A stretch of 64,000 bases of DNA from Acidobacteriota bacterium (GCA_028749205.1 JAQULR010000004.1:41742-105741), one strand, 5' to 3'; shown: positions 6,673 to 64,000, counted from the stretch's first letter. Numbers and translations: made by a program. Notes: generated from the letters alone by a model not told the origin.

Positions 6673-6702
6673 AAAAAGGGACACAAAATTGCGTCTTTTT
6701 TT
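6673..6702. repeat. Decayed relative of the REP-like palindrome (AAAAAGGGACACaaaattGCGTCTTTTTTT)
   Basis: Same A-run / GGGACAC / loop / T-run layout, but the right arm is mutated (GCGTC instead of GTGTCCC). It lies in a divergent intergenic region. Confidence 0.35.
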
Positions 6703-35326: not shown

Positions 35327-35351
35327 TTTTATAACTACGACCAGACTATGA

Positions 35352-35383
35352 GGGAAGGATAGTAATTATCCTTCCCTTTTTTT
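35352..35383 (+). terminator. Rho-independent terminator after OMP paralog 2
   Basis: GGGAAGGAT-agtaatt-ATCCTTCCC followed by TTTTTTT. Confidence 0.8.
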
Positions 35384-47110: not shown

Positions 47111-47132
47111 GGGGGACACACTATTGTGTCCC
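47111..47132. repeat. REP-like palindrome copy A (GGGGGACACACTATTGTGTCCC)
   Basis: 7-8 bp stem with a loop centred on TA, an A6 run 5' and a T-run 3'. It lies between convergent genes, 5 nt after the stop at 47106. Confidence 0.85.
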
Positions 47133-47167
47133 TGGTTTTTTTATCCCCTTTCTTTGGCTCCTTTTTT

Positions 47168-48148
47168 TCAGGCTTTACCCAGAACCATGGCCAGCAGAGC
47201 CATCCTGACATAAAGCCCATATTCCATCTGCCGAAAGTAGGCCGCTCGGGGATCTTTATCCACCTCCATGGCTATCTCGTTTACTCTGGGTAGTGGATGC
47301 ATGATTATCATCCGCTCCTGAGCCATCTCCAGCGTTTTAGGGCTAATTACATAGGCATCTTTGACCTTCTCATAATCTTCCAGGTTGTCAAACCTTTCTC
47401 TCTGAACCCTGGTCACATAAAGAACATCGGTTTTGGGCAGAACCTCTTCTAAAGTCAGATACTCTTTCTGAGGCAACTTCTTTTCCCCTACCTCATCAAT
47501 CACCTCCCGAGGCATCCTCAAGATCTCTGGTGAGACATAATTCAGTCTAATCTGATTAAACCGAGTGAGCAGCCGGGCTAAGGAATGGACAGTCCGCCCG
47601 TATTTCAGATCGCCCAGCATGGTGACTGTGAGATTATCTAAGCGGCCCAATTCTTCTCTTATGGTAAAGACATCGAGTAAAGCCTGAGTGGGATGCTCAC
47701 CCACCCCGTCTCCAGCATTAATTACCGGTTTCCCAGCAAACTCAGCGGCCAGAGCTGACGAACCCACTTCGGGATGTCTTAAAACAATCACGTCTGCATA
47801 GGCCGCCAGGGTTCTTACCGTATCGGGCAGGCTTTCACCTTTGGCTACCGACGAATATCGCACTTCGCTGATCGGAATCACTGCTCCACCCAGCCTCTGC
47901 ATAGCCGCCATGAATGAGGCGAAGGTCCTGGTAGATGGTTCGTAGAAGAGATTAGCCAAAATCTTGCCTTTCAGCAAATCAAAGGTTCCTATTCTCTCTA
48001 CCATCACCCGCATTTCATGAGCTACACTGAAAATGTACTCAAGGTCATTCCTGGTAAATTGTCTGACTGATAATATATTCTTGCCGTACCAGGGGGCCGT
48101 TTGCTGGTCACCAAAAGGCAGGTATGGACTTTTTGGTTTGGTAGGCAT
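47168..48148 (-). CDS. pyrB: Aspartate carbamoyltransferase catalytic subunit
   Basis: STRTF carbamoyl-phosphate motif ([10 protein letters not shown]), plus HPTQALLD-like and HPLPRV motifs. Confidence 0.9.
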
Positions 48149-48462
48149 ACTTACTCCTTTATATCCTCACTGGATTTTATTTTTTCTTTAATATATTCAT
48201 CCTGACTATCGCTGTCAATCTTAAGCTTTTTGGCGACCTGGACGTCAACTGGAGATGAGCCCACGACCTGGGTTATCTCATCAAGATAGTCCTCCACCAG
48301 CCACTACTCTTTCTTGATATTTTAAGAAGGAGTCAAAATGAGGCAGCAAGCCCGGAGTTTAATCTATCGGGTCAGAAACAACCAGGGCGCCGGGAAGAAA
48401 ACAGGTCGACTTAGATTATTTATGAATATTACAGGTTGATAAATATTGACAATCAAAAAACC

Positions 48463-48485
48463 GGGGACACGATAGTGTGTCCCCC
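48463..48485. repeat. REP-like palindrome copy B (GGGGACACGATAGTGTGTCCCCC)
   Basis: Same family in the opposite polarity to copy A. It lies 3 nt beyond the stop of the minus-strand gene 48488-49690. Confidence 0.85.
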
Positions 48486-48487
48486 TT

Positions 48488-49690
48488 TTATAAATATGGC
48501 TGCCAGTCAGACCGAGAAAATTCCAGCTTAAAGCTTCGACCTGACCAGAAAATTTCTACCTGACCAGATTCTCTGTGGCGGCCCTGGCTATATCTTAAGG
48601 TCAGCAGGGCGGCTTTCTTAACAACCGAGAACTTACTAGCTATCTCTCCTTCCCCCAGCTCAGCCAATCCGACTTTTGAACTTCCTTTTTGAATCTGGCC
48701 GCTATCATTCGCCCAACCAACCCGGTCATCATCCCTGATCTCTTCGCCTTCTTTCAGCCACCCAAGGTCGGCCTTTCCAGCGGCTCTCAAAGTAGCTGCA
48801 GACTGACTCTTCAGCCTGACCACAGTTAGAGGCCCCTTTACCCCTTCTACCGCTGAAATAAGTATGATCACGTCTGATTCCTGAGCCTTCTCCTTTATCT
48901 TTTCATTTTCCTGTTGGTTACGTCCGATAATAATCAGCCCTTCTTCCTCAAAAAAGACCCGACCTGCCTTAATCAGTTCTATATCTTCAGACAAAAGCCG
49001 TCCACGCCATTGCTGCAAATTCTTTAGCTTAGCGGAAAAAGCCGGGTCTGTTAGCAGGCAGCCCCCGGCCGGGGAAAGAAACTCTTTGAGCCTATACTTC
49101 TCGGCCAGCTCTAACTGCCGCTTTCTGGACCGCCCGGAAATATCCAGCAGCTTCTCCCGCTCAATCAACCCCTTTTTTTCTGGCAGAGTTTCCGGCAATA
49201 ATTTGGCCGACAGCGGTCTCAGCACCAGTCCTTTAATCCCGGAAAGTTTCTCAACAATCTGTAGAGCCTGCCGGTTCTGTGATTTTGGTCTTTCTCCGAC
49301 CACCTCACCAGTGGCTACAAAATCGGCAGCATATTCTGACATCAACTGACCAGCTATCCTGACCATCTGGCCATGGCAATCTAGACAGGGATTCATATTC
49401 CGGCCATAGCCATACTTGGGATTCTCTACGATGGGAATCTGTTCCTGGCTGATATCGATCACCACTAAGGGCCAACCCTGTTCAGCAGCTGCCTTTTGAG
49501 CCTCTTCCGCTCCAAAAAACTGGCTGCAAAAGGTCAGGCAGACTACTTCCACTCTCTGCTCTTCGAGTAATTTCGCAGCCAAGAGGCTATCCAGCCCGCC
49601 AGAAAAAAGCACCAGAGCCCGAACCTGTCTTTTTTTCTTCTCAGGTTTTCTAACTTCTATTATTTTCATACAGTCTGATCTTTCACTCAA
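48488..49690 (-). CDS. PP-loop ATP pyrophosphatase (ThiI/MnmA-like tRNA thiolation family) with an uncharacterised C-terminal domain
   Basis: SGGLDS PP-loop (LVLFSGGLDSLLAA) and NPCLDCH motif. The TTG start at 49690 is uncertain, and ATG 49669 is an alternative. Confidence 0.7.
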   Translation of the reverse strand: MSERSDCMKIIEVRKPEKKKRQVRALVLFSGGLDSLLAAKLLEEQRVEVVCLTFCSQFFGAEEAQKAAAEQGWPLVVIDISQEQIPIVENPKYGYGRNMNPCLDCHGQMVRIAGQLMSEYAADFVATGEVVGERPKSQNRQALQIVEKLSGIKGLVLRPLSAKLLPETLPEKKGLIEREKLLDISGRSRKRQLELAEKYRLKEFLSPAGGCLLTDPAFSAKLKNLQQWRGRLLSEDIELIKAGRVFFEEEGLIIIGRNQQENEKIKEKAQESDVIILISAVEGVKGPLTVVRLKSQSAATLRAAGKADLGWLKEGEEIRDDDRVGWANDSGQIQKGSSKVGLAELGEGEIASKFSVVKKAALLTLRYSQGRHRESGQVEIFWSGRSFKLEFSRSDWQPYL

Positions 49691-49702
49691 TAGACATAGA
49701 AG

Positions 49703-50566
49703 TTAAATTTTCGCTATTTCTCGTATTTTTTTCTGCCGGCCGGCCCAGCTCACCAGTCTAAAAGTCAACGGGCAGCGCAGAAAAAAACTCAAAACCTTAT
49801 TGCGTTTCCCGGGAATGATAATAACCTTTTTCCGGGCCAGGGCCCTCAGAGAAATTCTTACTACCCGGTCAGCCTTCATCCAGAGAAACCCCGGGATATT
49901 CTCCTTGTCAATTCCAGCCAGTTGATGAAATTCCGTGTGGGTAAAGCCCGGGCATAAGGCCTGAATTTTTATTCCTGTATCATAAAGTTCATTTTGAAGA
50001 TTTTCGGAAAACATCACTAAAAAAGCTTTGGTTGAACTATACAGGCTTCCTGACAGAGGTGAAAATGCCGCCACTGAAGAGACATTAATTATCGCCCCGC
50101 GATTTCTTTTGAGCATGGCTCCCAGAGCTGCCCTGGTCAGGACAGTTGGAGCCACTACATGAACTCTTATCATCTGTTCGGCTTCGCCGCTGTCATCTCG
50201 AACAAAATCGTTCCGTCCGCCAAAACCGGCGTTGTTGATCAGAAGATCCAGGTCTTCGGTTGCTTTAATCTTCTCAGCCAGCCTATTTATGTTTTCTTCC
50301 AGGCTCAGGTCAGCCGGGAAAACCTCTACTTCAATTCCGTATTTGGCCTTTAGTTCTGAAGCCAACTTTTCCAGGCGATCTTCCCTCCTGGCTACCATAA
50401 TCAGGTCGGCCCCACCCGCAGCCAGTTGCTTAGCATATTCCTCACCCAGGCCGGCTGAAGCTCCGGTTATTAAAGCTTTCCGATACAGAGCTGGCTTCAC
50501 TGCTAACTCCCTTTTTCTTTCAGCTAATTTTTTCCTTATGTTACCAGATTTTTTGCTGAGCTGCAT
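49703..50566 (-). CDS. Short-chain dehydrogenase/reductase (SDR) family oxidoreductase
   Basis: TGASAGLG cofactor motif, YSSTK catalytic motif and NNAG. Confidence 0.85.
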   Translation of the reverse strand: MQLSKKSGNIRKKLAERKRELAVKPALYRKALITGASAGLGEEYAKQLAAGGADLIMVARREDRLEKLASELKAKYGIEVEVFPADLSLEENINRLAEKIKATEDLDLLINNAGFGGRNDFVRDDSGEAEQMIRVHVVAPTVLTRAALGAMLKRNRGAIINVSSVAAFSPLSGSLYSSTKAFLVMFSENLQNELYDTGIKIQALCPGFTHTEFHQLAGIDKENIPGFLWMKADRVVRISLRALARKKVIIIPGKRNKVLSFFLRCPLTFRLVSWAGRQKKIREIAKI

Positions 50567-51223
50567 TATTCATACAAGTCCACATTACTTAAGAGTAGCC
50601 AGCATTGATGAAACGGAAAGTCGAGACATGATACGATCTTCTTAAACCGGTTTGTGTCCCTTATTTTCCGTGTGGCAACATAATCCACCTCTGCTATTAG
50701 AATAATCCATGTTAAATAGATTTATCATCAGGATCTCAAATCTGGATTCCTCTTATTTCTCAGAATCTTCCGGTCAGAAGAGGTTAATTCCTGTCAGCAA
50801 ACAGCACTATCTTTTTTCTTCTGGCTCACTCCCAGCCTGGCCTTCTCCGAAAGCCTCCAAATTTAATAGGCCCCTCAACAGTTTTTCTTCTTGTAGTAGA
50901 AAAGGCCGGTTTCCGAATTAATCTCCTTTTTTGTTGCGGGCTATTGTTTCCTTCTCTGTGTCGTCTAGGTATCTAAGCTATGGATAGCTGATCAAAAACA
51001 GGGCTCCAGAGGGTTGCCCGATCATAGATTTAAGCCAGTATGCCCAGAAAATTTTCTGTACTCTGCAATTTCTCGTTTTTAATTAAAAGGGAAGAATTGT
51101 CTTTCGTTAACGTCTTAATTACATCAGGAGCAGAATAATTATATATTTAGAGGCGAAGAAACATGGCTGCCCCTTAGCCCTCATAACCGAATATGGGGCC
51201 GAGCATTCAGCTTGAGGAGATTA

Positions 51224-51460
51224 ATGCCGGAAAGCATCTTAGATTATGTGATTCAATTGGACACAGAGAGCTCCCCTTGGCTGCTGCCCCGCAGGGAACC
51301 AGTCTTGCTAGTAACTCCTATTGTAGAGGATGATAGGTTTACCCTGTGCTACAAAGGCTTTAGAATAACCTCCTGCACTCCCCTCAAGGATCGCCTTTTT
51401 AGAGATGCTTCTTTAATGCGGAAAGCTCTGGATTATCTTTACTTGATTCAGTTAAAATAA
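51224..51460 (+). CDS. Small hypothetical protein (78 aa)
   Basis: A GAGGAG RBS lies 5 nt before ATG 51224. The gene ends 36 nt before the M28 peptidase gene. I recognise no family. Confidence 0.4.
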   Translation: MPESILDYVIQLDTESSPWLLPRREPVLLVTPIVEDDRFTLCYKGFRITSCTPLKDRLFRDASLMRKALDYLYLIQLK

Positions 51461-51496
51461 ATCTTATTTCTTTCACCAAGCCTATAGGAGGTTTAA

Positions 51497-53353
51497 ATGA
51501 AAAAGCGATTGTCACCGCTCCTAACAGCGGTAATGCTGCTGGCAATTTTCTCCTACTCTCTGGCTCAGATGCCCCAACAACAGCAGATGAAACCAGAAGA
51601 GGTGAAAAGGGCCCTCAGCCTGGTCCAGAAAACCGACCCGGTCCCAGAAAAATTCAAAACAGGGTTCGAGTCGATAACTCCTCGGGATGTCCTGTCAATG
51701 CTCAATTATCTGGCCTCTGACTGGATGGAAGGACGGGACACTGGAAGCCGTGGTTATGCTATAGCCGCCGATTATGTAGCTTCCCTTTTTAAGATGTGGG
51801 GAGTCAGACCAGGCGGTGACCCGCCCCGGTCAGCAATCAGCATCACCCGGGCTATGGCTGGGGACACTTCGGCCCAGGCCCCAACATTAGAACGCAGCTA
51901 TTTCCAGGAATTCACCCTTAAAGAAACATCTGACACCAGGACCAACCTGAAAGTGGAAGTTTCCAGGGGCTCTATGAGCAAAGCCCGGACCTTTGAAAGC
52001 GGAGTCGATTTTATGAGCAGCCTGAGTTCGGCTGAAGATATCAGCGGGGCGGTAGCTTTTGCCGGGTATGGGATTAAAGAGCCTTCAATCGGCTGGGATG
52101 AGCTTAAGGGTCTTAACCTAAAAGATAAAATTGTCCTGGTATTGAGCGAGGCTCCTGGAAAAGATGACCCTGATTCTCCTTTTAATAAGAATAAAGAACT
52201 TAAAGAAAAATATTTCCCCAGGGCTCAAGACCTCCGGATGATGATTGCCAGGCGAGGTCAGAGACCTTTTAACAAGCTGGAAGAAATCTACAAGCAGCAG
52301 CCAGCAGCCGTCCTGGTCGTCTCAAACTCCGGCAACGATGCTGATGTTTATAATATGCTGACGGCTATGGAGGCTCGGCAGATTGATGATTCCAGACCGA
52401 TCATAAAAAGGCCCAGAGCAAGAATGAGCCTCCCCGGTGGTGACGGCCGAATGGACAGAGTGATGGGGAGAAATTATGCTCCAACAATCAACATCACCAG
52501 AGAAATGGCCAACTTGATTCTGGAAAATACGGGTCAGACTATCGATGACCTTAAGAAAGCCATTGAAAGTACTTACAAGCCAGCCTCAAGGGAGCTGCCG
52601 GGGGTAAGAGTTAGTATTGAATCCACCGCTAAAACTAATTTGGTTCGGACGATGAATGTTATTGGTTATATCGAAGGTTCTGACCCCAAACTAAAGGACG
52701 AATATTTTGTGGTTGGAGCCCATTTTGACCATCTCGGCCGGTGGGAAGATTATATTTTCAACGGCTCAGATGACAACGCTTCTGGTTCAGTCGGAGTTAT
52801 GGCCATAGCCAGAGCTATCGCCATGAATCCGGTAAAGCCCAAGAGATCGGTGGTCTTCTGCCTGTGGACAGGTGAAGAAAAAGGCCTGCTGGGTAGCCGT
52901 TATTATGTGCAGAATCCGACTTTTCCTATCGAGAAAACTGTAGGTTACCTTAATTATGATATGATTAGCCGGCCTTTCGACCAGCAGACTATTGGCCGCT
53001 ACGCCAGAATGCTTAAGGTTGAGGGTGTCGAAGACTTAATCGAGCAAATCAGACCAGGCTATTTTGTTACTGTTAATGCCACCAAGGATTCAGGTTTCTA
53101 CGAGCTCCAGCAGGAGATGAACAAATATGTCGGGCTTGACCTGTTTATCAGAGAACCCGAGCTTGGTGAAGGCAGTGGCGGTTCTGACCATTCCTCATTT
53201 GCCGCAGTTAAAAAACCCTTTGTTTACTATATGACCTCCATGCATCCTGATTATCATCAGCCTGGGGATCATCCTGATAAGGCTTCCGGAGAGTTACTAT
53301 CTAGAATAGCCAGGCTGGGGTACCTGACCGTCTTCGCCTACGCCGACCGATAA
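51497..53353 (+). CDS. M28-family aminopeptidase with a PA domain
   Basis: Signal peptide. Zinc-ligand contexts GAHFDHLG, DDNASG and GEEKGLLGS. Confidence 0.85.
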   Translation: MKKRLSPLLTAVMLLAIFSYSLAQMPQQQQMKPEEVKRALSLVQKTDPVPEKFKTGFESITPRDVLSMLNYLASDWMEGRDTGSRGYAIAADYVASLFKMWGVRPGGDPPRSAISITRAMAGDTSAQAPTLERSYFQEFTLKETSDTRTNLKVEVSRGSMSKARTFESGVDFMSSLSSAEDISGAVAFAGYGIKEPSIGWDELKGLNLKDKIVLVLSEAPGKDDPDSPFNKNKELKEKYFPRAQDLRMMIARRGQRPFNKLEEIYKQQPAAVLVVSNSGNDADVYNMLTAMEARQIDDSRPIIKRPRARMSLPGGDGRMDRVMGRNYAPTINITREMANLILENTGQTIDDLKKAIESTYKPASRELPGVRVSIESTAKTNLVRTMNVIGYIEGSDPKLKDEYFVVGAHFDHLGRWEDYIFNGSDDNASGSVGVMAIARAIAMNPVKPKRSVVFCLWTGEEKGLLGSRYYVQNPTFPIEKTVGYLNYDMISRPFDQQTIGRYARMLKVEGVEDLIEQIRPGYFVTVNATKDSGFYELQQEMNKYVGLDLFIREPELGEGSGGSDHSSFAAVKKPFVYYMTSMHPDYHQPGDHPDKASGELLSRIARLGYLTVFAYADR

Positions 53354-53359
53354 TAAAAA

Positions 53360-53383
53360 GGGGGACACCCTAGTGTGTCCCCC
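53360..53383. repeat. REP-like palindrome copy C (GGGGGACACCCTAGTGTGTCCCCC)
   Basis: It lies between convergent genes, 7 nt after the stop at 53353 and 5 nt before the stop at 53388. A-run and T-run flanks are present. Confidence 0.85.
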
Positions 53384-53387
53384 TTTT

Positions 53388-56111
53388 TTACAGGTTAAAG
53401 CGATAAGAGAACTTTATAAGGAAGATGTTGTCGCCGGGGGCGGTGAATAAGTCACCCAGGTCTCTCCACAGTGACAGATTACCGGGATTACTAAAGTCTG
53501 CCCGGTTTTGGGTCCAGACCACATAAAGCAGAGACCCAGGCCGGTATTCCCATCTGAGAACCATAGTCCCTCGCATCGATTTATAATTAAAATCAGGTTT
53601 GAAGATTTCAAATGAGGAGGCCGGGCCATCGCCGTCCGGGTCAACTACATACCTGCCATCTTCATCCACAATAGTTGAGCCGTCCTTTCCATAAACCAGG
53701 TAATCATAAGCCCGCGGCCGGTTAAGCTGCTTGAACCGGTCATACTTCCCTACCGCTATAAAAGGCTGTAGATACACCTGAAGGCTGAGTTTCGGAGTGA
53801 AAATCCAGTTGAGCCGGAATTCAGTAGCAATGGTCTTCTGGTCTATCCGCCCAAAGATGTACCTCGTCCCGTAAGTCTCGGTCATCAGGGGATCAGCCAC
53901 CCGAGTCACCCACTGGAGTTCATCCAGGGAATAGTTAACCATAGGCCCTATCGAAAGGCTCAGATTGCTTCTTGGCTTCCAGCGCACCGAAAAACTGGCC
54001 GACCAGTAATTAGAATTATCCCTGGTCCGCTGATAAGAAAAATACCCATTTACAACAACCGGCTGCCTCGAATCGCTCGTCAGGACAAGCTGGTGGAGAA
54101 AGCCAGTCGGAGTCCTGGCTAACGGCCCTCCTCTGGTCAGCTGATTGGTCAGAGTAGCTGGCATAAAGAGGAAGGTGTATTCAAATTGCCACCAGTTAGC
54201 CAGAACGCCATTAAAATCAGCGAATAAACAGCCGAATAATTTATTGCCACCAAAATCATACTGCTGGGTGAAGCCAGCAAACAGCATTGACTGCCGGAAG
54301 ACTTTGCCTGGTTTGAGCCATTGATAACCATAAAAGCCATTTAAATCAATTAAATCCGAGCCCATGCTCTGAAAACCAGCATCGTTGGGATCAAAGCCTG
54401 GCGATAGAGCCCCGGCTGAGACCAGAAACAGCGAATTTCCCTGCTGCTTGACCAGCTTGAATTGCCCGGCCCAACCATTAAGGTTAGTAGCTTCAGGATT
54501 AAGGCTAACATGGGTAGCGTCAGGCCGCTGGAAATAATGCAGGGGATTTTGCTGAAGCCGGTATATATCTTCCTGGCTACCCTGGATAAAAGTCCCACCC
54601 AGCCAGCCGCCGACAACCCAGGTTCTTTTTTTGTCCAGAAAGGACCAGCCATCAGCGGCTAAGCTGAAAGCATTTTTATTCAGGATAGCAGCCAGCGGCT
54701 CGTTATCCAGGTCTCTCATGACCCCGGTGGCCATCAAACCTATTCCCTGCTGGCCATCATTGATGTCTTTCTGGGCTCGCAAAACCCCATAATAACTTAA
54801 TGGTTCAACCTCTTCTTTGTAGCGGGTGCTAAGATCATCGACTGTGGCAAATTCTCGCCCGGTAACTGCACTGATAAAACCAAGGTTCCAGCCACTACCA
54901 ACCCTCCCGGTAAGCTTAAAAGCGCCCAGGATGGTGGTCCGGTCTGGGAAATCAACGTAGCCCTCATGAAGAGGATAACCCTGAGGTTCTCGGCCAATAC
55001 GTCGGCTGTAGAAAAGGCGCGGGTTAGGCCAGTTGACATTGACATTCAGATAGACGCCACCTTGCCCAAAACTATTGAACATCGAGGCCCCTTCTATAAA
55101 AAACGGCCTCTTCTCTTGATAATAAGTCTCATAGGCACTCAAGTTGATAACCGCCGGATCAACTTCAACCTGGCCAAAATCAGGATTGACCGTCAGGTCA
55201 AGGTTGAGATTGCTTTTGAGTCCCGCTTTTAAGTCAAACCCTACGTCTCCTGCATACTTGTGACCGGTCTCAAAGGGGTTGCCAGGCTCGGCTGGCCTGA
55301 ACTGAGCCTGTCCCACTGAATAAGGATAAAGCTCCACCCGGCGCCCTGGTTTGATCTTCTCGATGCCCTCAAGCCGGGCAAAGCGTGAAACATAGGCAAT
55401 ATCCTCTTTGGGCACCCAGGCAAAAGCTACCTTTTCCTGTTTGCGTTTGATGGTCCGCTGGAAATTTACTCCCCAGAGGTATTTATCCTTTTTAGGAAAG
55501 CGAAGCTGATTAAAAGGAATTTGCATTTCGATAGTCCAGCCGTCGGCCACTCGGGCCACTTTGGCTTCCCAGATACCATCCCAGGTGGTATCTTCACCAA
55601 TGTCGTTTGACAGAGCTTCGTCCACAATGGAACCAGCGGGGTTTATACCGAACAAATAGCCGCTGCGGCGGTCAAAATACGGGTCTACACAGAAGAAGAA
55701 CCAGTCTGAATCCACAAAAGAATCGCGGCGACCAAGAAGACCTTTTATTCCTTGAGGGTCAGAATCATGACAGTAGGCGGCTACATAAAGGTTGGAATCA
55801 TCATAAGCCACCCAGGCTTCGGTCAACTCGGTGGCCGGAGCACCGTCAAGCGGGTCTTGTTGGAGGAAATCACTGACCGGTTCATTTTCTTTCCAGACTC
55901 CTTCCTCGAGCAGACCATCAAGTTTGATAGGTTCATTGAGCCTGATGGCCCTGACCACTTTCTTTTCCTGGGCCTTTTTCAAAGCTTCCTTATCGACTTC
56001 AGCTTGCTTGGTGAGGTTTTTGTTAACATTAAGAGGGGTAGCTGATAAACTTAAAGTCAGGTTAACCACCAGCAACCATAAGATTCCTGGAATAATTCTT
56101 TTTTTGATCAT
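53388..56111 (-). CDS. CBM9-like plus DUF5916 domain outer-membrane/secreted protein
   Basis: Signal peptide. The N-terminal segment IKLDGLLEEGVW...VAYDDSNLYVAAYCHD...GYLFGINPAG is typical of the carbohydrate-binding family 9 / DUF5916 architecture. The remainder is long and beta-rich. Confidence 0.75.
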   Translation of the reverse strand: MIKKRIIPGILWLLVVNLTLSLSATPLNVNKNLTKQAEVDKEALKKAQEKKVVRAIRLNEPIKLDGLLEEGVWKENEPVSDFLQQDPLDGAPATELTEAWVAYDDSNLYVAAYCHDSDPQGIKGLLGRRDSFVDSDWFFFCVDPYFDRRSGYLFGINPAGSIVDEALSNDIGEDTTWDGIWEAKVARVADGWTIEMQIPFNQLRFPKKDKYLWGVNFQRTIKRKQEKVAFAWVPKEDIAYVSRFARLEGIEKIKPGRRVELYPYSVGQAQFRPAEPGNPFETGHKYAGDVGFDLKAGLKSNLNLDLTVNPDFGQVEVDPAVINLSAYETYYQEKRPFFIEGASMFNSFGQGGVYLNVNVNWPNPRLFYSRRIGREPQGYPLHEGYVDFPDRTTILGAFKLTGRVGSGWNLGFISAVTGREFATVDDLSTRYKEEVEPLSYYGVLRAQKDINDGQQGIGLMATGVMRDLDNEPLAAILNKNAFSLAADGWSFLDKKRTWVVGGWLGGTFIQGSQEDIYRLQQNPLHYFQRPDATHVSLNPEATNLNGWAGQFKLVKQQGNSLFLVSAGALSPGFDPNDAGFQSMGSDLIDLNGFYGYQWLKPGKVFRQSMLFAGFTQQYDFGGNKLFGCLFADFNGVLANWWQFEYTFLFMPATLTNQLTRGGPLARTPTGFLHQLVLTSDSRQPVVVNGYFSYQRTRDNSNYWSASFSVRWKPRSNLSLSIGPMVNYSLDELQWVTRVADPLMTETYGTRYIFGRIDQKTIATEFRLNWIFTPKLSLQVYLQPFIAVGKYDRFKQLNRPRAYDYLVYGKDGSTIVDEDGRYVVDPDGDGPASSFEIFKPDFNYKSMRGTMVLRWEYRPGSLLYVVWTQNRADFSNPGNLSLWRDLGDLFTAPGDNIFLIKFSYRFNL

Positions 56112-56469
56112 CTAATCCATAATCATTTAGGTAATCTGCGTTGCCTATAACGCTCTCATTAACATATTATTAAACGAAGACGGAAGGGATAAGGTTCACT
56201 ATTTCAAAAAAAATAAGGGGGGAAAAGGACCTAATCTAATCTGCCGGGTTTTTAGCCGGATAAGGCCGGCTCAAAAAAATCATTAATAAGGCTGACATAT
56301 TATCAGAATTGCTAAAATAAAGAAGGACCATTAAGTATCCCGTCTGGTAAGTAATTTACCAAATTCCTCCGCCAGGAAGCGACACCTACCTGGTGGATAA
56401 AATCGCTTTACATTTTTTGTAGATTCAAGGATTATATGGCATTAATGAGACTTGAGGAGATAGTGACCC

Positions 56470-57456
56470 ATGATAACTAAGAGAATTAAGTCAGTTGGAG
56501 TTTTGTTGACTGTTGCCTGTCTTTCGAGCCTGCCAGTGATGGCTTTTGCCCAGGAGAGAACCGGCGGAGGTCGAGGACAACAGGCTGCCCCGGATTTTAT
56601 TCAGGTTTTACTCAGACCCAAGTTCATCACCATGCTGGTAATCGCCGGGTTGGTTCTGGTTCTATTGCTCACCAGAAAGATGAATAACAAGCTTAAAGTG
56701 CCAATCCTGCTTTTGTCAACCTTCCTGTATGGCATCTCCGCCAATCTGGGCCTTAAACTCTTTGCTGGCTTTTCGATGCATCCTTCGCCAATCTGTGCGG
56801 CCACTAAATCGATACTTTATGGTTTCCGTATACCCATGATTGTCACTTTAGCAGTGATTCTATTTTTAACCCTGGTCGGGCCGAAGCTTTTCTGTGGCTG
56901 GGTTTGCCCGGTCGGGGCTATTCAGGAACTCATTGCCATGTTGGCGGATAAGGCAAAAATTAAAAGAAAAAAGCTAAATTTCCGTTTGACTCAGAGCATC
57001 AGAGTGTTGATTTTTATCGCCTTCATTTTTTTGAGCTTGACAGCTACCCTCCACACTGTATCCAATGGCCAGGTGGTGGCTCTGTCACTTTATGATTATA
57101 TTAACGCTTTCCATGGCTATGAAATGAGCCTTCAGCCGACCTTTGTCGATAATGTGGTCCATTTTTTACCGTTTGTTCTAACGCTAATTTTTGCCTTTGT
57201 TACTTATCGTCCTTTCTGTTACATAATCTGCCCTATCGGCCTCATTACTAATGTGGTTGAGCAGATTGCCCTCTTCCGGGTGGTCAAAAAGAAAGATGCC
57301 TGTACTGACTGTCAGGATTGTGTCAGCAAATCACCTTGTCCGACCACGGCTGAGATACTTAAGGAGTCTGTCTTGAAACCGGATTGTTTCTCCTGCACCG
57401 TCTGTACCAGGAGCTGCAGCCTGGACCTGCTCCGCTTCGGCCTAAAGAACAAATAA
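56470..57456 (+). CDS. Membrane-bound 4Fe-4S ferredoxin-type protein (NapH/NosR-like)
   Basis: Paired CxxCP motifs in TM context (FCGWVCPVG, FCYIICPIG). C-terminal clusters CTDCQDC...CP and CFSCTVCTRSC. Confidence 0.75.
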   Translation: MITKRIKSVGVLLTVACLSSLPVMAFAQERTGGGRGQQAAPDFIQVLLRPKFITMLVIAGLVLVLLLTRKMNNKLKVPILLLSTFLYGISANLGLKLFAGFSMHPSPICAATKSILYGFRIPMIVTLAVILFLTLVGPKLFCGWVCPVGAIQELIAMLADKAKIKRKKLNFRLTQSIRVLIFIAFIFLSLTATLHTVSNGQVVALSLYDYINAFHGYEMSLQPTFVDNVVHFLPFVLTLIFAFVTYRPFCYIICPIGLITNVVEQIALFRVVKKKDACTDCQDCVSKSPCPTTAEILKESVLKPDCFSCTVCTRSCSLDLLRFGLKNK

Positions 57457-57466
57457 ATTGGAAAAA

Positions 57467-57489
57467 GGGGGACACAATATCGTGTCCCC
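57467..57489. repeat. REP-like palindrome copy D (GGGGGACACAATATCGTGTCCCC)
   Basis: It lies 11 nt after the stop at 57456 and has the same polarity as copies A and F. Confidence 0.85.
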
Positions 57490-57615
57490 GATTTTTCCCC
57501 TATTTAAGAGCCAGATGCATCCGGGAGAATGTGGGCGGAGTATCGATAGTTATTAATATCTTAGAAGCTTTAGACTTTTAGCTGTTTGTAACTTAAAGAA
57601 AAATAAGCAATAAAA

Positions 57616-58860
57616 CTAGGGACACAATAGTGTGTCCCTCATTTCTTTGAGGAATGGTTCTTTAAGGCTGTGGCCGGAAAAGAAGATTACTCCGTTAGCT
57701 CCGGCTTCCTGGGCCAGCCTGATCTCCTCTATCATAATATCCGGTGTGCTTTGATTGTGCGAGGTGCCAAGGCCAAGGCCGGCACAGACCAGGACCTTTT
57801 TACCCGGGCCAGCCGGGTCCCTGTAAGAAACAGCTTTTTTGATAAGCTTATCAAAAAGGGCCGTATCGTTCGTATAGAGCATCGGGCAGATCATCTCCAC
57901 CAGGCCTTGACGCATCCATTCTTCCCAGTCCTGTCCTATGAGAACCCGGGCATTATCGGCATCAGGAAAGACAGCTGCACTGATTTTAACCTGCCTGCCA
58001 GTCTTGTTTAGCTCTGCCCGGAGTTCCTTAACTAAGCGGGTCACCTGGTCGCGGTTCCACTCCAGCCAGACATTCCAGTATGGATTTCCAGAATCGCGGG
58101 CTTTAAGGCTGCCAAAATCAATCCCGGTTTCCTCTTTGAAAAGCTGCCTGGTTTGAGCATCATGACTGAAGTAAGGCTCGGTTGGTTCACAGGGAAAACG
58201 GATATAATCAAGATGAATCCAGTTAACTCCATACTTTCTGACCAGCTCAGTCATTAGGCTTATCTCATAGGCCCGGACCTGGGGAAGAGCCGGATTGACG
58301 GTGCGAACCATTTCCCGTCCTGGTCCAACTATCAGCCATTCTGGATGCTCCCTGACCTGACCAAGAAGCCCGGTCTCAGGAAAGACGCAGAACCAGGGAT
58401 GGACCTCCATCTTTCTTTTCCGAGCCTCTGCCAGAAAAAGGCCAAAGAAATCCCAGTCATAAGCCAGGTCTTTCACCCCGATTTCGCTGTTGTAATAGAC
58501 ATGGCCGCTGGTATCTTTAACCAGCATGATAAGGGTATTTATACCAGCCTTAGCATAGTCATCAAGAGTCCTTTTTATCTTATCTGCAGCAAGTTCTTTA
58601 TCCGGTCCGAACATGCCAGGGTGCATCCAGACTCCGCTGACCCAGGGACTCAGGGCTGACTCCGGAAGGTCAACCTTTGGTTCTTTAATGGGCTTAAGTT
58701 TTTGCCCATTTTTACCTGGGCTACCTGTGATAACTGAGGCCGCGCCTCCTATGATCAAAAATACCAGCAAAAAACTCAGCCCTCTTATAATTCCTGTCCT
58801 TAGTGCCGTCTGCAGATTAGATAGCATCTTGGCCCTCCCAGAGATATTTCTTGTCATCAT
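57616..58860 (-). CDS. Glycoside-hydrolase-like GHL10 / UPF0748 (YngK/YddW-like) family protein
   Basis: N-terminal TM/signal. GINTLIMLVKDTSGHVYYNSE and IHLDYIRFP motifs are typical of the family. Confidence 0.7.
   Translation of the reverse strand: MMTRNISGRAKMLSNLQTALRTGIIRGLSFLLVFLIIGGAASVITGSPGKNGQKLKPIKEPKVDLPESALSPWVSGVWMHPGMFGPDKELAADKIKRTLDDYAKAGINTLIMLVKDTSGHVYYNSEIGVKDLAYDWDFFGLFLAEARKRKMEVHPWFCVFPETGLLGQVREHPEWLIVGPGREMVRTVNPALPQVRAYEISLMTELVRKYGVNWIHLDYIRFPCEPTEPYFSHDAQTRQLFKEETGIDFGSLKARDSGNPYWNVWLEWNRDQVTRLVKELRAELNKTGRQVKISAAVFPDADNARVLIGQDWEEWMRQGLVEMICPMLYTNDTALFDKLIKKAVSYRDPAGPGKKVLVCAGLGLGTSHNQSTPDIMIEEIRLAQEAGANGVIFFSGHSLKEPFLKEMRDTLLCP
57619..57638. repeat. REP-like palindrome copy E (GGGACACAATAGTGTGTCCC), embedded in the 3' end of a CDS
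   Basis: It is the exact reverse complement of the 20-nt core of copies A and F. It encodes the last 7 codons (RDTLLCP) of the gene 57616-58860. Confidence 0.85.
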
Positions 58861-58900
58861 TTATCGGAGAATCTTTAATCATGTGCCATAACCTTTTCTA

Positions 58901-59977
58901 TTAATGGATGAAGCCGGCTCCCAGGACTGATTCCCCCTCGTATAAGACGGCAACCTGGCCAGGGGTTACGGCTTTATAGGGCTCCTGCAGGGTAACTTCG
59001 ACCGTTCGCCCCCCGTTTTCAGCAACCAGTCGGCAGTCAAGCTCGGGTGACTTATAACGAATCTTTACCTTAGCTTTAATTTCCTGTCCAGCTTCTGGGA
59101 GACGGGCAATCCAGTTCATTCCCTCTACTGAAAATTTCTCAGTTAGCAGGTCTTTTTCTTCACCGAGATAGACGGTGTTGGTGGTGGCCTCTATCCTGAT
59201 CACATAGAGACGCTGCCCGCCGGCCACGCCCAGTCCCCGGCGCTGGCCAACTGTGTAATTCGCGATGCCGTTATGCCGTCCGATGGTCTGGCCTTTCAGG
59301 TCTTTAATCGAACCTGGTTTTCCCTTATCCAGAAGGTCGCGGTAATCTCCGGCGTAGAAATCCTGGCTCTCTTCTTTATCGCTAACAGGCAGGTTGTGGT
59401 CACGGGCAATTTTTCTGACCTCAGCTTTGCTCAGTTCTCCCAGCGGAAACAGGCTTCGGCTGAGCTGCTTCTGGCTTAACAGAGATAAAAAATAGGACTG
59501 GTCCTTTTTAGGGTCAAGGCCCTTGAGCAGAAGCCAGCGTCCGCTCCTCTCATCATGCTTAACTCGGGCATAATGGCCGGTGGCAAAATAATCATAGTCC
59601 CGGCCAAGCCTCCGGCAGCCATCGAGCAGCAAACCAAATTTTATTTCCGCATTGCACTTAACACATGGATTGGGAGTTCGGCCCGATGAATATTCCTGGC
59701 GGAAATAATTAAGTATTCTGTCCTCATATTCCTGCCGCAAGTCGACAATATGGAAATCTATGCCGAGATGCTCAGCCACAGTTTCGACTGCTTTTATTTC
59801 TTCATTTTTTTTCTCACCGAAGCAGGCTGGTTTTCGCCTGGTCGGAATCGCATCTTCCGAGCTTATTTTCATGGTGACTCCGGTGACTTCATATCCCGCC
59901 TGTTTAAGCAGAAGGGCAGCCACCGAGGAATCCACCCCGCCACTCATCGCCACCAGCACTCTCTTAGCTTGAGCCAT
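58901..59977 (-). CDS. mnmA: tRNA-specific 2-thiouridylase
   Basis: PP-loop VAMSGGVDSSVAA, NPCVKCN, and full MnmA length and C-terminal barrel. Confidence 0.9.
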   Translation of the reverse strand: MAQAKRVLVAMSGGVDSSVAALLLKQAGYEVTGVTMKISSEDAIPTRRKPACFGEKKNEEIKAVETVAEHLGIDFHIVDLRQEYEDRILNYFRQEYSSGRTPNPCVKCNAEIKFGLLLDGCRRLGRDYDYFATGHYARVKHDERSGRWLLLKGLDPKKDQSYFLSLLSQKQLSRSLFPLGELSKAEVRKIARDHNLPVSDKEESQDFYAGDYRDLLDKGKPGSIKDLKGQTIGRHNGIANYTVGQRRGLGVAGGQRLYVIRIEATTNTVYLGEEKDLLTEKFSVEGMNWIARLPEAGQEIKAKVKIRYKSPELDCRLVAENGGRTVEVTLQEPYKAVTPGQVAVLYEGESVLGAGFIH

Positions 59978-60015
59978 CTTTCTCCCGCCCCTTTATTTTA
60001 ACACCAATTAAAAAA

Positions 60016-60037
60016 GGGGGACACACTATTGTGTCCC
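60016..60037. repeat. REP-like palindrome copy F (GGGGGACACACTATTGTGTCCC)
   Basis: Identical to copy A over 22 nt. It lies between divergently oriented genes, 39 nt upstream of the mnmA start. Confidence 0.85.
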
Positions 60038-60470
60038 GCGTTTTTCTATTACCCCCCTTCTCTCCTGGATAGCATACTCAAAACCCAACAACCCAATTGA
60101 GCCTTTTATTTGACTTTACAGTAAACTTTTATGAAAATAAAAAAGACATCTTAGGGGAAGGAAGAGGATGCTGACTCCAGGCAATCTAAGATTTCTTTCT
60201 TTATTATTACCAATTGTAGCCTTTACCATCTTTCCCTTTCAGGCCATGACTGATAAGGCTCAATTGCCGTCAGCCAGGAAAAAGAGGTGTCTGCTCCATT
60301 TGCCATGCCTTTCAGCGACAACCCCGGCCTCCTGGTAATTAAGCCAAAGGGCTGGAATTTTTTCTCTCCTGAGCCCGGTCAGGGCACCCTCCCCCTGCTT
60401 ATCTATTATCTATCCGCAGGGCAAGCTGGAAATCGAAGAAAGCCAACTGCTGTTCAAAGAAGCCATCTTA

Positions 60471-61184
60471 GTGGACATTCTTGACAGCCGACTAGACCTT
60501 AGGTTGGAAGACCTAATTAAAGAAGAAGTTGACCAGTTAGAAAACTACTACGGCTGGTTGACAATCCAGTCTACAACAGTAATGAGTTCAATGTCTGGCT
60601 TCAGATATCCGGTCTTAAAAATTGGAGGAGAGGAATCTGAGAAAATTATTTTTCTAGCTTTTAGCCTGGCAGGCGAGAAGGTAATTCAGATCATTCTGCT
60701 AACACATCCCGAGACTTATGAGAATTCCTGGCCGGCTTTCTTTTTTACTTTAATGACACTGCAGCCACTGCCAATCCATCTTGACCAGGATATCCTGAGA
60801 CTTCAGAGTAAGCCCGTTTTCACTCTGTTTGAAACCGACCTCCGGCAAAAACTACTTGATAAATCACCATACGAATATTGGGCGGCTTACCGGCCAGAGA
60901 CTGAAGTGCGCTTCAAGCATATTCAAAAATTCTCAGGTTATCAGCTTAATTTCGAAAAATCATTCAAGGTGATTTCTGTTGACAATGAAGGCGTGGTTAT
61001 GGAACTTCTGTTTGACTCAGTAAACTCGCTGAGCAACTGGTCTGAATTTCGGACAGGGGACCTGGAAAAGATTAATGTCGCCATGCTTCAGATAGCTTCA
61101 AGTGATATGGGGCTTTCCAAACAGATAGAGGAAAGTTTCAGGTCATTGGCTTCAGCCAATCTCAAGGTTAGCCTCAAAAACTAG
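60471..61184 (+). CDS. Hypothetical protein; probably the 3' part of a frameshifted longer gene starting at 60168
   Basis: GTG start in the track. The frame is open upstream to 60339. Two upstream short ORFs read as a natural N-terminal continuation: 60168-60338 carries a signal peptide, and 60257-60484 is in another frame. Confidence 0.55.
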   Translation: MDILDSRLDLRLEDLIKEEVDQLENYYGWLTIQSTTVMSSMSGFRYPVLKIGGEESEKIIFLAFSLAGEKVIQIILLTHPETYENSWPAFFFTLMTLQPLPIHLDQDILRLQSKPVFTLFETDLRQKLLDKSPYEYWAAYRPETEVRFKHIQKFSGYQLNFEKSFKVISVDNEGVVMELLFDSVNSLSNWSEFRTGDLEKINVAMLQIASSDMGLSKQIEESFRSLASANLKVSLKN

Positions 61185-61193
61185 AAAAAACCA

Positions 61194-61216
61194 GGGACAC
61201 GAGAGTGTGTCCCCCC
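61194..61216. repeat. REP-like palindrome copy G (GGGACACGAGAGTGTGTCCCCCC)
   Basis: It lies 10 nt after the stop at 61184 and has A-run and T-run flanks. Confidence 0.8.
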
Positions 61217-61234
61217 TTTTTAAGGAAGGTTATA

Positions 61235-62425
61235 ATGGCAAAAAAATCTTTGGCTATCGGGATATTACTTTGCTTCCTAATTTCTATCCCTGCTTGGCCG
61301 GCTAAAAAAATCACTACACTGAACTGGGCTGCATCCATTAACAATTCCGATTCAAAGGCCGAGCCGCAGGTTCAGGTTATTGAAAATCCGGCTAAACCTC
61401 CAGGCAGAAAACCCGCCCGGGTGGTTGAGCTAAAGCCCGTGCTATCTATCATGGATCAACCCGAGAATTTTTTCTTTAAATATCCATCTGATATCAAGTT
61501 GAGCCGGAACGGGCATATATTTGTCTTGGATAAGGAGCAGATTCTACATTTTGATTCTTCAGGAAAGTTTTTGGGAAACTACTTCAAAAAAGGTCAGGGG
61601 CCAGGAGAGATGCAGATGGTAACAGATATCGTTATTGATGGCGAAAATTTAGTGGCTTTTGACATCTATCCCAGGAAACTCTGCCGCTTTGATTTCAACG
61701 GAAATCTGCTGTCTGAAATTAAAGTAAGCGCACCGCAGATAGGAGGCAGTCTAGTGCATATTGACGGAAGCAGTTATTATTTTGTGCGGTCAGATTTTCC
61801 GGACACAGGCGGGAAATGGATTAAGGTGGATAATCTTAACTATTTTCAGGTTTACGACGCAAAGACAAATAAGCTGGAGGAACTGGCAGCTTTTCCCATA
61901 ACCACCTGGGCAATATCTCAAGGAGGTTCCAGAGGCCGGGCCGATACAACCCCATTCAGGGCTATACCTTATAAGAACAATCAATTTATCATCTCTCACA
62001 CAGAAGACTACCTGCTTAAAATATTCGATGTAGAGAAAAAGCAAGTGGTCGCCACCTTCAGGCGAAAATACAAGAGAGTAAAAATACCGGAGAAAAAAGA
62101 GCCTTCGGCCTGGATTGGAATCGGCGGTCAACGGTATTCATATAATCCAGCCTACTTTAATGACATATTAGAAGTCCTGGTTGTGGGTGATTTGATCTGG
62201 GCCCTGACCTCGACGGTGGATAAAAGCAAAGGTCTGCTGGTTGATGTCTTCAACCAGGAAGGGAAATACGTTGATTGCTTTTATCTGAAATTTCCGTTTG
62301 AAGTAAAGCCAAATAGCAGCACGCTGGGAATAGGTCTGGCTATCGACCCTGAGGGCCAGAGCCTGTGGGCCACAGTCAAAAATCCCGACGAAACCTTTTC
62401 AATAAAAAAATTCCAGCTGGACTAA
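61235..62425 (+). CDS. 6-bladed beta-propeller family protein (NHL-like), secreted
   Basis: Signal peptide MAKKSLAIGILLCFLISIPAWPA and a repetitive propeller-like sequence. I moved the start to ATG 61235, because the track start GTG 61205 lies inside repeat copy G. Confidence 0.65.
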   Translation: MAKKSLAIGILLCFLISIPAWPAKKITTLNWAASINNSDSKAEPQVQVIENPAKPPGRKPARVVELKPVLSIMDQPENFFFKYPSDIKLSRNGHIFVLDKEQILHFDSSGKFLGNYFKKGQGPGEMQMVTDIVIDGENLVAFDIYPRKLCRFDFNGNLLSEIKVSAPQIGGSLVHIDGSSYYFVRSDFPDTGGKWIKVDNLNYFQVYDAKTNKLEELAAFPITTWAISQGGSRGRADTTPFRAIPYKNNQFIISHTEDYLLKIFDVEKKQVVATFRRKYKRVKIPEKKEPSAWIGIGGQRYSYNPAYFNDILEVLVVGDLIWALTSTVDKSKGLLVDVFNQEGKYVDCFYLKFPFEVKPNSSTLGIGLAIDPEGQSLWATVKNPDETFSIKKFQLD

Positions 62426-62439
62426 AAACGGAAAAAATA

Positions 62440-62461
62440 GGGACACGATAGTGTGTCCCCC
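62440..62461. repeat. REP-like palindrome copy H (GGGACACGATAGTGTGTCCCCC)
   Basis: It lies 15 nt after the stop at 62425 and 66 nt upstream of the RAYT-type transposase start. Confidence 0.85.
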
Positions 62462-62527: not shown

Positions 62528-63187
62528 ATGCCCAGGATAGCCCGAATCGTCATTCCTTACATCCCCCATCACGTAGTCCAGCGCGGGAACCGCAATCAGC
62601 GGGCCTTCTTTTCAGAAGATGACAAAAAGCTCTACCTGAAAATACTGGGCTTTAATTGCTCAAAGGAAAAAATTAAAATCTGGTGCTATTGTGTGATGGA
62701 TAATCACATTCATCTTGTGGCGGTCCCAGAAAGTGCTGAGCATCTGGTCAAAGCCATCGGTGAGACTCACAGAAAATACACCTGGATGATAAACACTCGC
62801 AATAACTGGAAAGGTTATCTCTGGCAGGGTCGGTTTCGGTCATATCCGATGGACGACGTCTATCTTCTCTGTTGCGTCAAATATATTGAGCGAAATCCGG
62901 TAAGGGCTGGTCTGGTCAGACTGGCCGAAGAATACCAGTGGTCAAGCGCCCGGGCCCACGTTTTTGGATTAAAGGATCCTGTGCTCAGTCCACTGCCTTT
63001 AGTCTCTCAAGTCAAGAACTGGAGTAATTTTCTCCGGGGGGAAGATAAGGAAGAAGATTTAGAACTTCTCAGGAAGAATCAAACAGTCGGCCGACCTCTT
63101 GGCAGCGAGGATTTTATCGAGATGATTGAAAAAACGACAGGGATCCGTTTAAGGAAAAGACCATCTGGACACCTTAGAAAAATATAA
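62528..63187 (+). CDS. rayT: HUH / Y1 single-strand DNA transposase of the REP-associated tyrosine transposase (RAYT, IS200-like) type
   Basis: N-terminus RIARIVIPYIPHHVVQRGNRNQ. HUH motif in MDNHIHLVAV. Catalytic-Tyr motif KYIERNPVRAGLV. The ORF is intact (219 aa). Confidence 0.8.
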   Translation: MPRIARIVIPYIPHHVVQRGNRNQRAFFSEDDKKLYLKILGFNCSKEKIKIWCYCVMDNHIHLVAVPESAEHLVKAIGETHRKYTWMINTRNNWKGYLWQGRFRSYPMDDVYLLCCVKYIERNPVRAGLVRLAEEYQWSSARAHVFGLKDPVLSPLPLVSQVKNWSNFLRGEDKEEDLELLRKNQTVGRPLGSEDFIEMIEKTTGIRLRKRPSGHLRKI

Positions 63188-63959: not shown

Positions 63960-64000
63960 GCTGTGGATTATACCAAAATAAAAACGGGCATACGAGGGTG

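Follow-up and report, generated by a model that had tools for sequence, protein, structure and literature searches.

Short terminator-like hairpins near a TIRYT-like Y1/HUH gene in an uncultured Saccharicenans bacterium

Among the REP-associated Y1 proteins, TIRYT proteins, or Group 1 RAYTs, are the largest branch and the one least understood, and we know of no biochemistry on them. The repeats that accompany TIRYT genes were first described in 2013 by Di Nocera et al. (PMC3733652), who gave the inverted copies flanking these genes the consensus GGGGWSAS (PMC3733652); in some genomes the repeats have been amplified as singles, dimers and clusters, and some are self-complementary (PMC3733652; PMC6006769; PMC5581495). 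The group, also designated TnpA-Y1 subclass 2.1, has been reported in Acidobacteria, in Koribacter (PMC3733652; PMC6006769; PMC5581495). Quentin et al. (2018) described subclass 2.1 as having no REPs (PMC6006769), and Bertels et al. (2017) found only about 12 occurrences of the 16-mers that flank Group 1 genes (PMC5581495).

Here we describe a family of hairpins in a 64-kb stretch of DNA (the window) from an uncultured Saccharicenans bacterium. The locus resembles a TIRtron/TIRYT in that its Y1 protein carries a C-terminal extension and the NH[VI]H, WQ, YIExNP and SS motifs, and in that relatives have inverted repeats with GGGGWSAS around the gene, of which the window has an intact upstream copy and a truncated downstream one. 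The preliminary description did not recognize the repeat as a described REP; judged by its sequence, however, the core GGGGACAC fits the published GGGGWSAS terminal inverted repeat (PMC3733652; PMC6006769). The repeat type is thus already known, and what differs here is its form: a compact palindrome of 20–34 nt that mimics a bidirectional terminator and reaches a local density of up to about one copy per 2 kb. A literature search returned no paper on repeats of Candidatus Saccharicenans or Aminicenantes, and for GGGGACAC it returned primers only.

Comparison with the classical REP/REPIN-RAYT systems is similarly mixed. As in those systems, short extragenic palindromes accompany an apparently single-copy Y1/HUH gene, the closest match in both sequence and fold is TnpA-REP (4ER8), with the class 2 Y---NP motif, the copies are intergenic and lie mainly 3' of genes, and related MAGs carry REPIN-like doublets spaced about 74 nt apart. 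However, the GTAG or GT[AG]G foot of classical REPs is absent from our oriented alignment of 22 copies, which have an A-run 5' and a T-run 3', and the window protein belongs to another subclass with an apparent extra C-terminal domain. The REP/REPIN reading of the preliminary description is therefore supported for a REP/RAYT-like link, but not for a classical GTAG-footed REP.

Hairpins in the window

The copies, together with the Y1/HUH gene and the incomplete units around it, are as follows.

47111..47132, plus strand: copy A, hairpin GGGGGACACACTATTGTGTCCC, between convergent genes, 7 nt past the stop of a Memo-like gene
48463..48485, minus strand: copy B, 5 nt past the stop of a minus-strand gene (48488-49690)
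53355..53388, minus strand: copy C, an extended 14-bp palindrome, AAAAAGGGGGACAC-N6-GTGTCCCCCTTTTT, between convergent genes with stops 9 and 7 nt away
57467..57489, plus strand: copy D, 13 nt past the stop of the gene at 56470-57456, 150 nt from copy E, with which it is paired in inverted orientation
57619..57638, minus strand: copy E, overlapping the stop region of a minus-strand GHL10 gene (57616-58860)
60016..60037, plus strand: copy F, flanked by divergent genes and 41 nt ahead of the mnmA start
61194..61216, minus strand: copy G, 10 nt past the stop of the gene at 60471-61184
62440..62461, minus strand: copy H, 15 nt past the stop of a DUF5128 gene and 66 nt before the Y1 gene
62528..63187, plus strand: Y1/HUH gene, 219 aa, with motifs NHIH, WQ, YIERNP and WSSARAH
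63166..63173, plus strand: remnant of the downstream repeat, cut down to TGGACACC and contained in the Y1 gene at its 3' end
63986..64000, strand unassigned: degenerate copy, GGGCATACGAGGGTG..., upstream of the TauE start and cut by the window end

All eight copies A–H of the preliminary description were recovered where it had placed them, as exact matches to GGGACAC-N6-GTGTCCC starting at 47113, 48464, 53362, 57469, 57619, 60018, 61194 and 62440. There was no match in 100 dinucleotide-preserving shuffles, against the eight in the window. These hairpins occupy 17 kb, with none in the remaining 47 kb; by our own arithmetic, under uniform placement the chance that the final 16.9 of the 64 kb would receive all eight is about 2e-5. 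That the first 47 kb holds no intact copy, as had been claimed, is confirmed by a scan allowing up to three mismatches, which added just one weak match, at 6678. Rfam had no match across the whole window.

When oriented, the copies yield the consensus AAAAAGG-GGGACAC-ACTATn-GTGTCCC-nnn-TTTT, with the longer G-run in the 5' arm and a variable spacer of 1–3 nt on the 3' side only. The claimed polarity is evident in this alignment, in which copies A, D and F are plus and B, C, E, G and H minus. The core GGGGACAC is present in 8/8 window copies, and a core of about 13 nt, GGGGGACACACTA, makes up the heart of the unit: the palindrome consists of the core and its own complement, with an A run and a T run on either side. 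Computed free energies of the RNA hairpins range from -14.5 to -25 kcal/mol. Nearly all copies are intergenic, and seven of the eight either overlap a stop codon or are 5–15 nt away from one, in agreement with the 15-nt limit given in the preliminary description, which also correctly placed copy F between divergent genes.

The hairpins also look like terminators in both directions, as the preliminary description had noted. A terminator scan flagged seven of the eight (all but C), each on both strands, while the rest of the window showed no excess of terminator-like sites and only one convincing terminator. Since an A-run precedes their GC stem and a T-run follows it, copies past stop codons could act as bidirectional intrinsic terminators.

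The preliminary description ended the series at copy H. The distance of 66 nt to the Y1 ORF stands, but the series does not stop there: the remnant, the degenerate copy and further intact copies follow. Copy H lies where the Y1 gene would have its upstream terminal repeat, with a polarity opposite to that of the canonical upstream repeat. On the downstream side the intact repeat has been lost and the truncated remnant stands in its place, while a relative (L205) has a full hairpin at the position aligned to 63166-63173. The degenerate copy at 63986 has an intact counterpart in other strains of the same species, whose contigs extend only about 3 kb rightwards past the window and carry further intact copies in the interval that separates TauE from a P-type ATPase gene. 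The genes on either side of the two copies upstream of TauE are divergent. Copy positions are the same in strains that are 99.3% identical over 11.4 kb.

The Y1/HUH protein and the core around its homologues

The Y1 gene, the 3' end of which overlaps the convergent TauE gene, encodes a protein that matches Pfam Y1_Tnp. Its best NCBIfam match is REP_Tyr_transpos, at 51.9 bits and hence below the 80-bit cut-off; its sole PDB sequence match is TnpA-REP 4ER8, which is also the top fold match of its predicted structure (pLDDT 89.9, E = 2e-8). Published subclass 2.1 proteins have an NHVH-type HUH motif, WQ, a YIELNP-type Tyr motif, an SS motif in the tail and a median length of ~238 aa (PMC6006769), and the motifs and 219-aa length of the window protein agree with this signature (PMC6006769 Table 1). 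Across 32 homologues the HUH and Tyr motifs (NHIH, LWQGRF, YIERNP, WSSARAH) are invariant. No Pfam match at E <= 1 to the HTH-like domain reported at the C-terminus of subclass 2.1 (Bac_DnaA_C, HTH_23, HTH_28) was found in these 32 members; the AlphaFold model of the Y1 protein predicts a confident helical C-terminal region at residues 141-204. On motif and length comparisons, then, the protein fits the TIRYT group. Its gene is strongly conserved and apparently single-copy, its synteny with TauE is kept in species at 75–76% identity, and the identity of homologues is graded across Aminicenantes, with most homologue clusters on 1–5 contigs.

The preliminary description tied the palindromes to the adjacent HUH/Y1 gene, and homologues in other genomes support this, since they too are flanked by the GGGGACAC core in inverted orientation. 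Among 77 metagenomic loci encoding Y1 homologues (76 for the downstream side), GGGACAC occurred on the gene strand upstream in 33/77 as opposed to four with the reversed orientation, and GTGTCCC downstream in 33/76 as opposed to seven. The modal position is about 55 nt ahead of the start codon on one side and about 30 nt beyond the stop codon on the other. Within 300 nt of the gene there are 2.0 cores per kb, compared with 0.08–0.2 per kb farther away. About half of the loci have no GGGACAC in their flanks. Inverted flanking repeats are clear in three relatives (L204, L103, L125), whereas the window has an intact copy H upstream and only the remnant downstream; in L103 and L125, whose homologues are 58–59% identical, hairpin doublets sit on either side of the gene. 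The association of the GGGGACAC core with this clade of proteins is therefore conserved. Over distances of 1 to 10 kb from the Y1 gene, core density in the pooled loci did not fall, so 'local hopping' is unsupported as the reason for the 47-kb gap in the window.

Related Aminicenantes genomes contain either multi-copy hairpins or linear forms that share the same core. In the syntenic species L204 (75% protein identity) the core occurs only as a linear 28-nt unit that is unable to form a hairpin, from which it follows that conservation of the core does not depend on hairpin or terminator shape. The form found at orthologous sites differs from genome to genome: the site of copy F holds a linear unit in L204, and the element is absent in L205. 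Such differences, including this absence upstream of mnmA, point to turnover or homogenization after speciation. A contig scan with a 14-base pattern gave at least 120 matches, mostly chance singletons; among the matches listed, multi-copy stretches were almost confined to Aminicenantes MAGs, with several contigs per MAG. Viral contigs scanned with an oriented 19-base pattern gave no matches and thus no sign of phage carriage.

Probable origin and possible upkeep of the hairpins

We consider it likely that the hairpins are a family of short, non-autonomous repeats and that they arose from the terminal inverted repeat of the Y1/HUH (TIRYT) gene beside them. Each unit would consist of a clade-wide recognition core, AAAAA-GGGGGACAC-ACTA, followed by 7–8 nt of its complement, and would therefore form a stable stem-loop as single-stranded DNA or RNA. 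By analogy with E. coli TnpA-REP and IS608 TnpA, the Y1 protein may bind the folded single strand and, through its catalytic tyrosine, cleave and rejoin it, whereby units in intergenic DNA would be copied, replaced or homogenized. Copies just past stop codons may double as bidirectional intrinsic terminators, presumably a secondary role, and it is probably this capability that keeps hairpins near stops. A more tentative possibility, which we somewhat doubt, is that the Group 1 RAYT of Saccharicenans actively maintains and homogenizes minimal hairpins that are themselves bidirectional terminators, with concerted switching between linear and hairpin forms in sister species. If true, there would be parts of the genome in which a domesticated transposase seeds and renews most strong terminators.

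Other readings of the hairpins account for part of these data. That seven of the eight copies adjoin stop codons and that the scan flags both strands is what one would expect of ordinary Rho-independent terminators, made alike by selection for an optimal stem and near a Y1 gene by coincidence; moreover, singletons of the same pattern with A/T flanks arise by chance in many unrelated genomes. However, terminators that arose independently would not have a common 13-nt core and loop polarity, the rest of the window has one convincing terminator, and the genes around copy F, like those around the two copies upstream of TauE, are divergent. The inverted cores at 33/77 Y1 loci and the L204 units, which have the core and cannot fold, have already largely refuted this reading, and we regard it as highly improbable. 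Still harder to credit is a DNA-uptake or other protein-recognition sequence. The inverted pairs of the Neisseria DUS are found in terminators, and a conserved short core arranged as inverted pairs at gene ends recalls them. However, nearly all copies are intergenic, the core is positioned specifically around Y1 genes, and single copies, which the preliminary description had proposed as the check on this point, are not enriched (four GGGACAC 7-mers outside the hairpins in the window, with 4.2 expected by chance), which argues against an uptake sequence.

It is also conceivable, if unlikely, that the Y1 protein has been fully domesticated and that the hairpins, having spread long ago, are fixed sites at which it binds or processes nucleic acid for the host, for example to handle single-stranded DNA at replication forks, to structure the chromosome or to protect mRNA 3' ends. 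The apparently single-copy, strongly conserved gene and its synteny with TauE across species would suit such a role, as would the fixed positions of copies within the species and the published view that RAYTs behave like housekeeping genes (PMC5581495). On the other hand, orthologous sites hold different forms of the element in different species, and upstream of mnmA one species has none, while the decaying copy in one strain disfavours strong site-specific selection.

If the hairpins do derive from the TIRYT repeat, the Saccharicenans locus offers a clean candidate substrate for the Y1 protein in the ~13-nt core GGGGGACACACTA. The known GGGGWSAS motif becomes part of a longer consensus here, one that lies at a fixed distance from the gene, and sister species with hairpin and non-hairpin forms at orthologous sites make protein recognition separable from terminator function. 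For annotation, the hairpins mark gene boundaries in Aminicenantes MAGs and should not be taken as independent terminators.

Several better-known elements were considered and rejected. Integron attC sites do not agree with units of 20–34 nt in all orientations among housekeeping genes and without an integrase. A CRISPR mini-array, considered for the 74-nt doublets, is at odds with two units per site that flank Y1 genes and have partly conserved spacers. Elements of the IS200/IS605 family (IS608, ISDra2) have the same HUH/Y1 catalytic fold, and their recognition of a folded ssDNA hairpin serves as a model for the mechanism; but their motif is Y---Q where the window protein has Y---NP (YIERNP), the NCBIfam IS200 model scored 13 bits against a cut-off of 55, and, whereas they are multi-copy and near-identical, the window gene is syntenic, has no nearby tnpB and belongs to a set of homologues that diverge with the host lineage.

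The hairpin family in the window

The pattern GGGACAC-N6-GTGTCCC occurs eight times in the window (at 47113, 48464, 53362, 57469, 57619, 60018, 61194 and 62440; copies A–H) and in none of 100 shuffles of it, which confirms the original observation. As the preliminary description had stated, the first 47 kb holds no intact copy despite more than 20 intergenic gaps; a search of the window tolerating up to three mismatches added a single weak match, at 6678. Outside the hairpins the bare 7-mer GGGACAC was observed four times in the window vs 4.2 expected, so that the over-representation belongs to the palindrome and not to the word; that the copies are uptake sequences is the least probable of the readings weighed here.

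When 22 copies taken from the window species and a close relative were aligned in a common orientation, the consensus was AAAAAGG-GGGACAC-ACTATn-GTGTCCC-nnn-TTTT, and the polarity and orientations first assigned were borne out: the 5' arm has the longer G-run and the loop begins ACT. Within this alignment the variable spacer is confined to the junction of C-run and T-run, and no conservation extends outside the A-run and T-run. Orientations (three plus and five minus in the window, six and six in L205, a locus of MAG SKW99) show no bias with respect to transcription or strand.

The ORF map of the window also agrees with the placement first reported: seven copies overlap a stop codon or sit 5–15 nt from one, while copy F lies between divergent genes with the mnmA start 41 nt downstream. 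All copies are predicted to fold stably as RNA (−14.5 to −25 kcal/mol). A terminator scan returned 41 sites in 44–64 kb vs 23.6 expected, the excess being the hairpin family on both strands, and 24 sites in 24–44 kb vs 26.6 expected, with one convincing site at 35350. Thus the family supplies nearly all of the strong terminator-like structures here. The sole strong non-family terminator in the window (35350-35378) lies downstream of a tandem gene pair:

33548-34207, + strand, outer-membrane beta-barrel (OMP_b-brl_2) paralogue
34676-35326, + strand, outer-membrane beta-barrel (OMP_b-brl_2) paralogue

An 895-aa ORF at 38665-41352 (− strand) has no Pfam match.

The Y1 protein and its class

The Y1 protein (219 aa) shares 100% identity with an annotated protein of a Candidatus Saccharicenans MAG (Aminicenantes, Acidobacteriota); across the Saccharicenans/Aminicenantes lineage its homologues show smoothly graded identity, and its neighbouring genes are of housekeeping type (ornithine carbamoyltransferase-like, mnmA, M28 peptidase, DUF5916, TauE). 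It matches Pfam Y1_Tnp, and its best NCBIfam model is the REP-associated tyrosine transposase (51.9 bits, below the 80-bit cut-off), the IS200 score being far lower (13 bits). E. coli TnpA-REP (4ER8) was the sole match in a PDB sequence search and the top fold match (E = 2e-8) of the AlphaFold model (pLDDT 89.9), with the IS608 and ISDra2 transposases next. In 32 homologues NHxH (HUH motif), WQ, YIERNPVRAG (Tyr motif) and WSSA are invariant or nearly so; these motifs agree with those listed as the signature of TnpA-Y1 subclass 2.1, the equivalent of Bertels Group 1 (Quentin et al., PMC6006769).

RAYT-like genes that have terminal inverted repeats (TIRs) on either side in place of GTAG REPs have been described as TIRYTs and TIRtrons, with the common motif GGGGWSAS; the TIR families are moderately abundant, as singles, dimers or clusters, and some are self-complementary, one in the acidobacterium Koribacter (Di Nocera et al., PMC3733652). 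TIRYTs were later equated with subclass 2.1, entered as without REPs (Quentin et al., PMC6006769), and Group 1 flanking 16-mers have just ~12 genomic occurrences (Bertels et al., PMC5581495). Because GGGGACAC fits GGGGWSAS, the consensus is one already described, contrary to what had been supposed. The window repeats resemble the TIRYT class in this core and differ in their unusually compact, terminator-like form. Our literature search found neither later work on TIRYTs nor any on repeats of Aminicenantes. The class, though described, has been little studied, and it gains here a member from a new lineage.

The same core around Y1 homologues

The repeats are associated with the Y1 gene. Among 80 metagenomic loci encoding Y1 homologues, plus L103, GGGACAC lies within 250 nt upstream on the gene strand in 33 of 77 (reverse complement, 4), and GTGTCCC downstream in 33 of 76 vs 7 in reverse, which supports the interpretation first offered. 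The cross-lineage flank consensus is (AATTCC)GGGGACAC-AATAC-TTAATT, with modal positions ~55 nt ahead of the gene start and ~30 nt past its stop. Elements occur at 2.0 per kb in the 300 nt nearest the homologue and at 0.08–0.2 per kb farther out, to 10 kb; in the pooled loci there is no fall-off with distance from 1 to 10 kb. TTGAC(A) often follows the upstream repeat by ~20–25 nt (L160, L164, L167, L172, L173, L180, L183, L196 and others) and is a plausible candidate for the −35 box of the Y1 gene, in which case repeat and promoter region may overlap.

A hairpin scan covered one genome per species and yielded at least 120 stretches. Among the matches listed, 11 came from Saccharicenans/Aminicenantes MAGs; five stretches had at least two hairpins, and four of these were likewise from such MAGs. 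The remainder were lone hairpins from unrelated taxa. Hairpins in these MAGs are often doublets 73–75 nt apart, and those around the homologues of L103 and L125 (58–59% identity) lie on both sides of the gene. Doublets of the form GGGGACACC-N4-GGTGTCCCC, with constant start-to-start spacing (73–75 nt), are found at:

L083 6147-6240
L085 5633-5726 and 7403-7496
L103 2835-2937, 5775-5867 and 6577-6670
L041 100-193

The spacer of the MAG Ch100 doublet is conserved in part, giving a REPIN/MITE-like unit of ~115 bp. A hairpin whose oriented form (GGGGGACACACTCTCGTGTCCC) is identical to that of window copy G occurs at L034 1479-1498 (CALEUG010000025.1, 'uncultured bacterium'), which is probably an unlabelled Saccharicenans-related MAG.

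Some genomes carry amplified lineage-specific units sharing the core. The densest amplification seen is ~20 copies of AAAAAACCGGGACACATTGACTTTTT in 12 kb around a homologue of 50% identity (L153 1-12400). The 20-kb locus of L124, a 371-kb metagenome contig, holds three different repeat families with the GGGACAC core in a single genome, a hint of several cognate Y1 paralogues:

AAAATCGGGACACCCTACATTTTTCCGA
ACGGGGGACACGAACTGCTTTTAGC
GGGGACACCTGCAGGTGTCCCC, a hairpin

Repeat forms, their probable origin and copies past the Y1 gene

The Y1-TauE arrangement is kept in two further species, L204 and L205 (protein identity 75–76%). L205 has ~17 hairpin-type units in 20 kb, while the L204 units are all linear (28 nt, AAAACGGGGGACACACTACATATTTACCT), inverted around the Y1 gene, plus two solo copies. 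Upstream of mnmA, copy F (60016-60037) lines up nucleotide by nucleotide with a linear unit of L204 (4350-4385), the two having GGGGGACACACTA in common and diverging after it without indels; the orthologous L205 site (730-1113) has no element. In a second orthologous intergenic region L204 has a single linear unit and L205 three units of hairpin type. It follows that the constant feature of the repeats, as far as sequence comparison indicates, is the core and not folding ability. Each genome stamps its own form on its copies, pointing to turnover or homogenisation after speciation; these genome-specific forms are the strongest indirect sign, though no more than indirect, that the system has been active.

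We consider it probable that the hairpins are TIRYT-associated repeats. On this reading they would be bound in folded, single-stranded form by the Y1 protein, which would copy or homogenise them, and they would have a secondary role as terminators. Catalysis by Y1 on the repeats would follow the analogy of TnpA-REP and IS608. Against this, a Y1 protein that is fully domesticated, with its sites fixed, is an unlikely reading; copies C–H stand at identical positions in a same-species contig (99.3% identity over 11.4 kb). Plain terminators are a far less probable account. Stop-proximal placement fits either retention for putative termination or tolerance at such sites only, and since the linear L204 units carry the core, termination cannot explain its conservation. 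We also considered, and dismissed, integron attC sites and CRISPR mini-arrays.

The series had been thought to end at the Y1 gene, but repeats lie past it:

63166-63173, truncated remnant of the repeat
63986-64000, degenerate copy by the TauE start, decayed form GGAGACACACCCTCGTATGCCC, cut by the window end (compare L002 1760-1800)

Three other assemblies of the species retain an intact version of this degenerate copy, and other strains have more intact copies in the TauE/P-type ATPase interval. In the window the 3' ends of the convergent Y1 and TauE genes overlap by 14 nt (63174-63187); in L204 ~145 nt separate them and hold the downstream repeat.
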